Shown here: positions 27,270 through 28,216 of the stretch, piece by piece
Layout: each line of letters starts with the position of its first letter
Numbering within the stretch: position 1 is the stretch's first letter
Source of the DNA: Escherichia phage vB_EcoM_G17
Sequence record: MK327931.1
Reading direction: 5' to 3' (one strand)
DNA length: 64,000 nucleotides
Program-made: the position numbers and the translations under genes
Notes under the pieces: model-generated
Told to the model about the DNA's origin: nothing
Database searches by the model: none
What the model saw: only the letters and a program-made list of their open reading frames with translations

Positions 27270-27698
27270 TTAACTGCCTTTCATTTCCTCGGCAGCAGTA
27301 CGTGCAAGTTGGTCAGCAAGGTTATTATAAACATTATCTGCATGAGCTTTAACCCATTCAAATTTACAACCTGAACTGATTTCATCCAGAATTTTCCATA
27401 AAGAATCATTCTTTACATTATTCCAGTTACGTTTTTTCCAACCAGCTATCCATTCATTAATTCCACGAACTACATAGTTGGAATCAGTGTAAACAAATAT
27501 TTCAGGGTTTTCATATGTATCCTTAACATATTGAATACCAGCAATAGTTGCTTGTAACTCCATTTTGTTATTTGTAGTCATTATATCACCAAATGACAGT
27601 TTGTCCTGGATTTGATTATTAATAACTACAACAATACCAACACCGCCTGGGCCTGGATTTCCTAGACAAGAACCATCAGTATATAAGTCTATTTTCAT
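27270..27698 (-). CDS. rnhA: ribonuclease HI (RnhA type)
   Basis: [29 protein letters not shown] and [18 protein letters not shown] motifs; the ATG overlaps the frd stop (ATGA). Confidence 0.85.
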
Positions 27699-28216
27699 TG
27701 GTATGCATCCACCCAATCATCGTAAACATGAACAATCTCGTAATAATCAACAATCGTACCGTCAGATAATGTTTTAGACTCAAATCTTGATAATTTTACA
27801 CGCTTATCGTCCTTAAATCTAACAAAAGTATCACATGTATATGTACCCTTGACGGTACTGTGAATAATCTCATTAACGTAAGGAAGAGCAGCTTTATAAA
27901 TCTTAGCACCACCAATAACAACACATTCGGGGTTTAACTGAATCAATTCAGGTAAACTCCTTTCTGGTAAGAAAATAACATTACTATCATCAGCATATTT
28001 TTCAATATCATCACACTCACGAGAAATTAAGACTACGTTCAAACGTTTTTGAAGTGGTTTTTTTGGAAGTGATTTCCACGTATTATACCCCATAATAATC
28101 ATTCGTCCTGATGTTTCATTTTTAAAGTGCTCAAAGTCAGCTTTACTGTACCAAGGTATCGAATTATTACAACCAATCCCATAATTTTCATCAGTGCATA
28201 GAATCATTTTTGACAT
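27695..28216 (-). CDS. frd: dihydrofolate reductase
   Basis: [11 protein letters not shown]...[14 protein letters not shown] and VIGGAKIY motifs. Confidence 0.85.

Follow-up and report, generated by a model that had tools for sequence, protein, structure and literature searches.

Background

Type 1 ribonuclease H (RNase HI) cuts within the RNA of an RNA:DNA hybrid and leaves a ribonucleotide at the RNA-DNA junction, and 5' nucleases of the flap endonuclease (FEN) type remove 5' RNA or flaps to give a nick that can be ligated. A model of Okazaki-fragment maturation in bacteria, as outlined in PMC10191290, has RNase H cleavage followed by removal by FEN. Among the Rak2-like jumbo phages, CBB was described in 2017 as having "two ribonuclease H enzymes", with frd, RNase H and dda as its genes CBB_313, CBB_314 and CBB_315 (PMC5259590), and a survey of 224 jumbo phages reported RNase H1 in several phages of subgroup 2.2, and flap nucleases in a few members of 2.2 and in the majority of 2.1, both being discussed as primer-removal enzymes (PMC7824862). 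In the Chimalliviridae, the RNase HI-like domain of the RNase H-clamp protein Rhc of phage Goslar was tied experimentally to replication and R-loop handling, and catalysis by this domain was required for replication of the phage genome (PMC13648698). Here we describe a gene for RNase HI, rnhA, together with the dihydrofolate reductase (DHFR) gene frd directly upstream of it and a second nuclease gene, of the FEN family, in a stretch of 64,000 nucleotides (nt) of Escherichia phage vB_EcoM_G17 (MK327931.1), the whole of which is called the window throughout.

In the reading that we prefer, to which as a whole we assign a probability of about 0.72, the genes for a predicted membrane protein, frd, rnhA and a Dda-like helicase (dda) are part of a conserved polycistronic block for replication and nucleotide metabolism in the Rak2-like jumbo phages; RNase HI would cut RNA primers and R-loops, the FEN-family nuclease would finish their removal and a ligase would seal the nick, with the translation of rnhA coupled to that of frd.

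Evidence for an intact RNase HI

The protein encoded by rnhA was matched by the Pfam profile RNase_H (PF00075) with 127.2 bits (cutoff 25.8; E 6.9e-37) over its residues 4-136, corresponding to profile positions 5-140 of 141, and a phmmer search against the Protein Data Bank (PDB) returned E. coli RNase HI with an E-value of 1e-32 over residues 2-138. When the protein was aligned with E. coli RnhA, in a sequence that agrees with the PDB alignments, the residues D8, E47, D72, H119 and D129 fell on the catalytic residues D10, E48, D70, H124 and D134 of the E. coli enzyme. Across 53 to 55 homologues with identities down to 43%, D8, E47, D72 and H119 were invariant and D129 was kept in at least 90%. 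The AlphaFold2 (AF2) model, whose underlying homologue alignment was made without the T5 and E. coli sequences, reached a pLDDT of 95.9 and a pTM of 0.90, and it predicts an RNase HI fold: each of the best Foldseek matches in the PDB was a structure of E. coli RNase HI, at TM scores of 0.88 to 0.89 and an rmsd of 1.4 A. An earlier reading of this DNA, made from the letters only (the sequence-only reading below), had called the open reading frame (ORF) an RnhA-type RNase HI, on which the Pfam, PDB and model matches agree, and had named absent catalytic residues as what would speak against the assignment; all four carboxylates of the DEDD set and the His are present.

Some features set the protein apart from its cellular counterpart. 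The NCBIfam profile for the RNase HI equivalog (NF001236) scored 148.2 bits, below its cutoff of 160, and the protein is a member of the family that has diverged too far to count as a cellular RnhA equivalog. In the basic protrusion, a handle characteristic of the E. coli and human HI subclass, the WKKRNW helix is present and the loop that follows is five residues shorter than in E. coli, the TADKK segment being missing. This short loop is common to the window, to BF17 (Asteriusvirus) and to XaC1, and the loop is of full length in BF, GAP32 and Kaldavass. Taken together, the profile matches and conserved residues suggest that the product of rnhA is a type 1 RNase H that stands alone and is competent for catalysis.

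A variation at the active site was seen in one relative. The Kaldavass RnhA (our record L007, 2489-2926) has Asn at the column of E. coli D134 and an Asp one residue later; the fourth catalytic Asp column is kept in the other clade members aligned, that is, BF17, BF, GAP32, XaC1 and the window.

The second nuclease

The FEN-family protein was identified by the Pfam profile 5_3_exonuc_N (60.3 bits, cutoff 34.3; E 2.5e-16) and also by PHROG 107, annotated 'exonuclease', and its best relatives in the PDB were T4 RNase H (1tfr, E 1.2e-5) and T5 exonuclease (1exn, E 3.5e-5). In a three-way alignment, D9, E59, D121, D142, D144, D202 and D205 of the window protein corresponded to D19, D71, D132, D155, D157, D197 and D200 of T4 RNase H, its metal-binding residues, and all seven positions are acidic, with six Asp and one Glu (E59 for T4 D71). 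No Pfam match to a C-terminal H3TH DNA-binding domain was obtained at E <= 0.01; the GDxxDN motif (KGDTSDNV) aligned with T4 and T5. The homologue in the 121Q record is annotated 'RNase H-like 5'-3' exonuclease', and the window protein presumably has the 5'-3' exonuclease and flap activity of T4 RNase H. The sequence-only reading had placed a FEN-family, T4-rnh-like gene at 57865-58851, in line with the Pfam and PDB matches and with the seven acidic positions; it left the strand unstated, and frd, rnhA and the FEN gene all lie on the minus strand. The window FEN is also a homologue of T5 D15, the reported trigger of retron Ec78.

Junction between frd and rnhA

On the minus strand the tetranucleotide at 27698..27695 reads ATGA, and the ATG of rnhA therefore overlaps the TGA of frd, just as had been noted before. 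The two genes thus have the arrangement by which coupled pairs are recognised, a stop that overlaps or abuts the next start, and rnhA is probably coupled to frd in translation. The ORF program had placed the start of rnhA at a TTG at 27716; this was rejected for the ATG at 27698, because the Sharanji record uses the latter and it matches the N-termini of the homologues and of E. coli RnhA. The GGGTGGA element in the 3' end of frd (Table 1) may work as a Shine-Dalgarno (SD) sequence for rnhA. In BF17, Serratia BF, GAP32 and Kaldavass the rnhA ATG is closely preceded by GGTGG or AAGGTGGA; XaC1 carries AAGGAAG at that place.

To judge how special the overlap is, the gene junctions in the Sharanji annotation of this stretch were counted. 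Overlaps of 4 nt make up 9 of the 81 same-strand junctions, and overlaps of any length 27 of the 81; six of the nine were verified as ATGA in the window, the other three lying where indels shift the window relative to Sharanji coordinates. The ATGA overlap of frd and rnhA is not unusual for this genome. A scan of positions 25500-29500 found no terminator-like sites, and promoter-like matches in the same interval were as many as expected from shuffled sequence (24 against 23.4) and are uninformative.

The genes around the junction are listed in Table 1. The gene frd is annotated as folA in Sharanji and slurp01, and its start is overlapped by 13 nt by the stop end of the membrane protein gene, whose counterparts in GAP32, BF and Kaldavass are likewise annotated as membrane protein. 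On the other side, a Dda-like gene directly follows rnhA in all relatives examined, and genes for a homologue of initiation factor 3 (IF3) and for a ClpS-like protein lie further downstream of dda.

Table 1. Positions of the frd-rnhA genes, their junction elements and the FEN-family gene in the window
Feature	Position	Strand	Basis
rnhA, type 1 RNase H (RNase HI), 142 aa	27270..27698	-	Pfam RNase_H, PDB, AF2/Foldseek, alignment to E. coli RnhA
frd, dihydrofolate reductase, 173 aa	27695..28216	-	Pfam DHFR_1 E 9.8e-30; PHROG 316 E 3.7e-44
ATGA, 4-nt overlap of frd stop TGA and rnhA start ATG	27695..27698	-	direct sequence reading
GGGTGGA, Shine-Dalgarno-like, in frd 3' end, 9 nt upstream of rnhA ATG	27708..27714	-	direct sequence reading
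Dda-like SF1B helicase, next gene downstream of rnhA, 27-nt gap	25899..27242	-	PHROG 325 E 8e-123; Pfam AAA_30/PIF1
Predicted membrane protein, function unassigned, 122 aa, first gene of block	28204..28572	-	ORF list; PHROG 28138
5'-3' exonuclease / flap endonuclease of the FEN family, of the type of T4 RNase H and T5 D15, 328 aa	57865..58851	-	Pfam, PHROG 107, PDB

Gene order in related phages

The 3.7-kb stretch around frd and rnhA is 100% identical to vB_Eco_slurp01 (LT603033) and to Sharanji (OR545507), and 96.9% to 99.6% identical to 121Q, PBECO4, phAPEC6 and others of that group. From 17800 to 64000 the window matches Sharanji, a member of the genus Asteriusvirus with a 350-kb genome, at 100% identity, and over its first 17.8 kb at 99.96% with a few indels, the true differences there being one mismatch and six gap openings. 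The sequence-only reading had called the second nuclease T4-type; the identity to Sharanji and slurp01 argues that the window itself comes from an Asteriusvirus, and so from a Rak2-like jumbo phage, not from a T4-like one. The minus-strand block takes up the whole window and consists of genes for replication, recombination and nucleotide metabolism, among them dda, gyrA/B, nrdAB, a DnaB-like helicase, a RecA/UvsX-like gene, PolB, the IF3 homologue and the ClpS-like adaptor.

The order membrane protein-frd-rnhA-dda was found in Asteriusvirus BF17, Eneladusvirus BF, Mimasvirus GAP32, Erwinia phage Kaldavass and two metagenomic loci, L012 and L013, whose RnhA is 65% identical to the window protein. 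In the Xanthomonas phage XaC1 and a third metagenomic locus, L011 (RnhA 58% identical), the order frd-rnhA-dda-IF3 is kept, but the annotation shows no membrane-protein gene next to frd on its upstream side. In every phage record checked and in L011 to L013, dda is followed by hypothetical genes and, after these, by IF3. The form of the frd/rnhA junction varies, from ATGA with a 4-nt overlap in Asteriusvirus, through TGATG with a 1-nt overlap in Serratia phage BF and abutting genes (TAAATG) in GAP32 and Kaldavass, to an 8-nt overlap in XaC1 and L012/L013 and a 6-nt gap in L011. The rnhA/dda junction is an ATGA overlap in BF, GAP32 and Kaldavass, and the two genes are 25 to 27 nt apart in Asteriusvirus. 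The tightness of the frd/rnhA junction appears to be conserved as a property, not as a particular sequence, which fits a single transcript with close translational linkage.

Outside this clade the linkage was seldom met. Among 80 IMG/VR loci with relatives of RnhA, DHFR lies directly upstream and Dda directly downstream in four, all of them Rak2-like, and two further loci have DHFR within 6 kb; a FEN gene within 6 kb of the RnhA gene was found in none of the 80. A general phage rule linking RnhA with DHFR was rejected, adjacent DHFR being confined to those four loci, and the linkage is therefore a trait of the clade. The comparison with related phages that had been proposed earlier for the frd-rnhA arrangement and the rnhA/FEN pair accordingly found both to be the norm of the clade. 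It is conceivable that the fixed frd-rnhA-dda unit, seen in five sequenced Rak2-like lineages that include three named genera, links DHFR and the synthesis of deoxynucleoside triphosphates, functionally or physically, to the processing of lagging strands and R-loops by RNase HI and Dda, or that the second nuclease buffers against host defences that sense FEN in the way reported for retron Ec78 and T5 D15; we consider both highly improbable.

Inheritance of rnhA

The best solved structures for the rnhA protein are E. coli RNase HI and the enzyme is of the bacterial type, both of which would be expected if a host rnhA had recently been captured and happened to follow frd. The identities point elsewhere. 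The protein shares 46% identity with E. coli RnhA, 84% with BF17, and 50% to 57% with the orthologues of XaC1, Serratia BF, GAP32 and Kaldavass, which belong to other genera of the phage clade. In a search of 5.8 billion proteins, the matches formed a smooth series from 99% down to about 50% identity, many of them from contigs of 250-366 kb, a size typical of jumbo phages, and named bacterial RNase HI (Alishewanella, Pseudoalteromonas, Pelagibacterales) appeared only at 45% to 49%. The GC content of rnhA is 34.3% and that of its third codon positions (GC3) 22.4%, in a window of 33.9% GC and alike in the neighbouring phage genes.

The higher identity within the phage clade than to E. coli, the equivalog score below its cutoff and the phage-like GC content together argue that rnhA is an old, vertically inherited gene of the phage lineage and not a recent capture from the host, and with the synteny kept across genera, identity and GC content effectively rule out such a capture. 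The term 'host-type' used in the sequence-only reading is therefore apt in the sense of bacterial-type and misleading in the sense of derived from E. coli.

Occurrence of both nucleases in phages

The records of slurp01, Sharanji, 121Q, PBECO4 and others already carry annotations for both genes. Co-occurrence of RnhA and FEN was established case by case, in 121Q, BF17, Kaldavass, pEa_SNUABM_50, CBB and T5. A tblastn search gave RnhA-type matches in 506 of 50,697 phage records and FEN matches in 821 records. RnhA-type matches were present in 38 Escherichia phage records, 32 of which are of this jumbo-phage clade, and among the matches listed the only other one was Cyrano (108 kb). In the Ackermannviridae, an RnhA-type gene is found in Limestonevirus and a FEN rnh in another member, that is, in two separate genomes.

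The pair of RNase HI and FEN is thus normal gene content of the Rak2-like jumbo phages that has already been annotated and published. The sequence-only reading had found it notable that one phage carries both primer-removal enzymes; since the pair is annotated in the relatives, was published for CBB, occurs in T5 and corresponds to the standard cellular route, this view does not hold.

A possible division of labour

In the reading that we prefer, RNase HI would cut the RNA strand of RNA:DNA hybrids on the phage DNA, namely Okazaki primers made by the phage primase and R-loops, the ribonucleotide at the junction would be left to the FEN-family 5'-3' exonuclease encoded at 58851..57865, and the phage ligase would then seal the nick. 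The two nucleases would in this way take complementary steps in the classical two-nuclease removal of primers and would not be redundant, a division of labour suggested by what is known of the two enzyme families. As for expression, ribosomes that finish frd would reinitiate at the overlapping rnhA ATG, helped by the weak internal SD sequence GGGTGGA.

The same genes could be read with a different emphasis. RNase HI may serve mainly to control R-loops, either at conflicts between transcription and replication on the heavily transcribed 350-kb genome or in the trimming of R-loop primers at origins, with FEN alone handling the lagging-strand primers as in T4. The active site of the window FEN is complete, and the enzyme could remove primers on its own as T4 rnh does; moreover, rnhA adjoins the gene for a Dda-type helicase, and helicases of this type clear obstacles ahead of replication forks. 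The two roles are however not mutually exclusive, since one and the same activity would serve both, and the work on Goslar Rhc points to both primer and R-loop roles for an RNase HI domain of a jumbo phage. Since the T5 annotation and the cellular model place type 1 RNase H in the processing of primers, a role confined mainly to R-loops seems to us rather unlikely.

Several points weigh against the two-nuclease reading itself. Phage T4 manages with a FEN-type enzyme alone, and a type 1 RNase H is therefore not obligatory for a T4-style replisome. The host RNase HI is presumably available during infection, the deletion of five residues in the basic protrusion could alter substrate binding, and the SD sequence of rnhA is weak and stands 9 nt from the ATG. 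We found in the literature no experiment on the window RNase HI or on any Rak2-like homologue. For PhiKZ, according to a passage of PMC13648698 that cites the result, replication was rescued by nuclease-dead Rhc, so that RNase H catalysis is not what is essential in every jumbo phage.

A further proposal would make RNase HI a factor of counter-defence or host takeover, which destroys the hybrids of defences based on reverse transcriptase or guided by RNA, or which backs up FEN so that FEN can mutate away from the defences that sense it. Its circumstantial appeal lies in the report that T5 D15 triggers retron Ec78 and that escape mutations fall in D15 (bioRxiv 10.1101/2023.03.15.532788), and in the speculation by the authors of the PA5oct study that the RNase H-like protein of that phage processes transcripts in host takeover (PMC7318152). 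The location and history of the gene speak differently: rnhA lies in the core block for replication and nucleotide metabolism and not in an accessory or anti-defence island, and it is vertically conserved across genera with its synteny fixed. In the literature searched, no report of an RnhA-type anti-defence protein came up, and the known anti-retron protein, Rad, is of a different, Toprim type; the T5-family Rad was itself considered as an RnhA-type enzyme and rejected, being a 189-aa Toprim/RNase-domain protein. We consider a counter-defence function very unlikely.

In general, the Rak2-like jumbo phages carry the full cellular-style kit of two nucleases for the removal of RNA primers and R-loops, which fits their general self-sufficiency in replication. 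The significance of this beyond correct annotation is slight, and a mildly useful lead is the tightly joined frd-rnhA-dda unit that runs through the clade.

Other features of the window

Some further features were observed. Facing the frd block, two tandem paralogous membrane-protein genes occupy 28703-30060 on the plus strand. An intact first copy (28703-29383, 226 aa) is followed by a second that begins in frame 0 (29400-29717) and goes on in frame +1 (29581/29722-30060), its similarity to the first copy running through the change of frame near 29690 (GGCCAAGTTCGGACTAGTT). BF17 (85% identical) is annotated with the same split, and both genes are intact in GAP32, BF and XaC1. The split may reflect a pseudogene, a +1 frameshift or two genuine genes.

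At the start of the window, a 153-bp tandem repeat (positions 262-576; 2.1 copies, 99% matches) falls where gp260 and gp261 of Sharanji meet. The repeated sequence is also present in Sharanji, and window positions 1-423 consequently also align with it 147 bp out of register. The window also encodes two GroES-like co-chaperonins (13388-13714 and 61138-61437), the IF3 homologue and the ClpS-like protease adaptor (24289-25021), and a 172-aa fragment annotated as DnaE (14131-14649); a truncated DnaE-like protein was likewise noted in the CBB paper (PMC5259590).

Comparison with described systems

E. coli RNase HI and the window enzyme share the fold, the single-domain size class, the D-E-D-D residues with the His, the TTNN motif that binds phosphate and, in the basic protrusion, the WKKR helix. 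At 46% identity, the phage protein differs in being 13 residues shorter, with the five-residue deletion in the basic protrusion and without the C-terminal tail, and in being phage-encoded within the frd-rnhA-dda block. The closest counterparts are the RNases H of the Rak2-like phages (121Q gp43, PBECO4, GAP32_309, Serratia BF gp311 and CBB_314), which are orthologues with 50% to 100% identity, stand between frd and dda with a tight frd junction and co-occur with a T4-rnh-like FEN; they differ in the form of the junction and in the length of the basic-protrusion loop.

Phage T4 is comparable through its RNase H only, with which the window FEN shares the N-terminal nuclease domain and the seven acidic metal-binding positions, at an identity of about 27% over 62% of the length; T4 is not known to have an RnhA-type gene. 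Phage T5 is comparable in gene content, being a virulent coliphage with an RnhA-type rnh (T5.091; 32% identity, E 4e-19), annotated as an enzyme for processing Okazaki primers, and the FEN D15, and its rnh adjoins nucleotide-metabolism genes in the order nrdA-nrdB-frd-thy-rnh. It belongs, however, to an unrelated family (Demerecviridae), and its rnh has its own annotated promoter, with thy between frd and rnh and no overlap. In the T5 record (L009, 8413-14599) the genes nrdA-hegH-nrdB-frd-thy are followed immediately by rnh, read in the same direction, which amounts to a looser frd-rnhA neighbourhood.

Sharanji is a phage that forms no nucleus (PMC11895373). Compared with Goslar Rhc, which has two domains, the C-terminal one derived from a clamp, and which is a subunit of a split DNA polymerase, the window RNase HI is a stand-alone protein of 142 aa.

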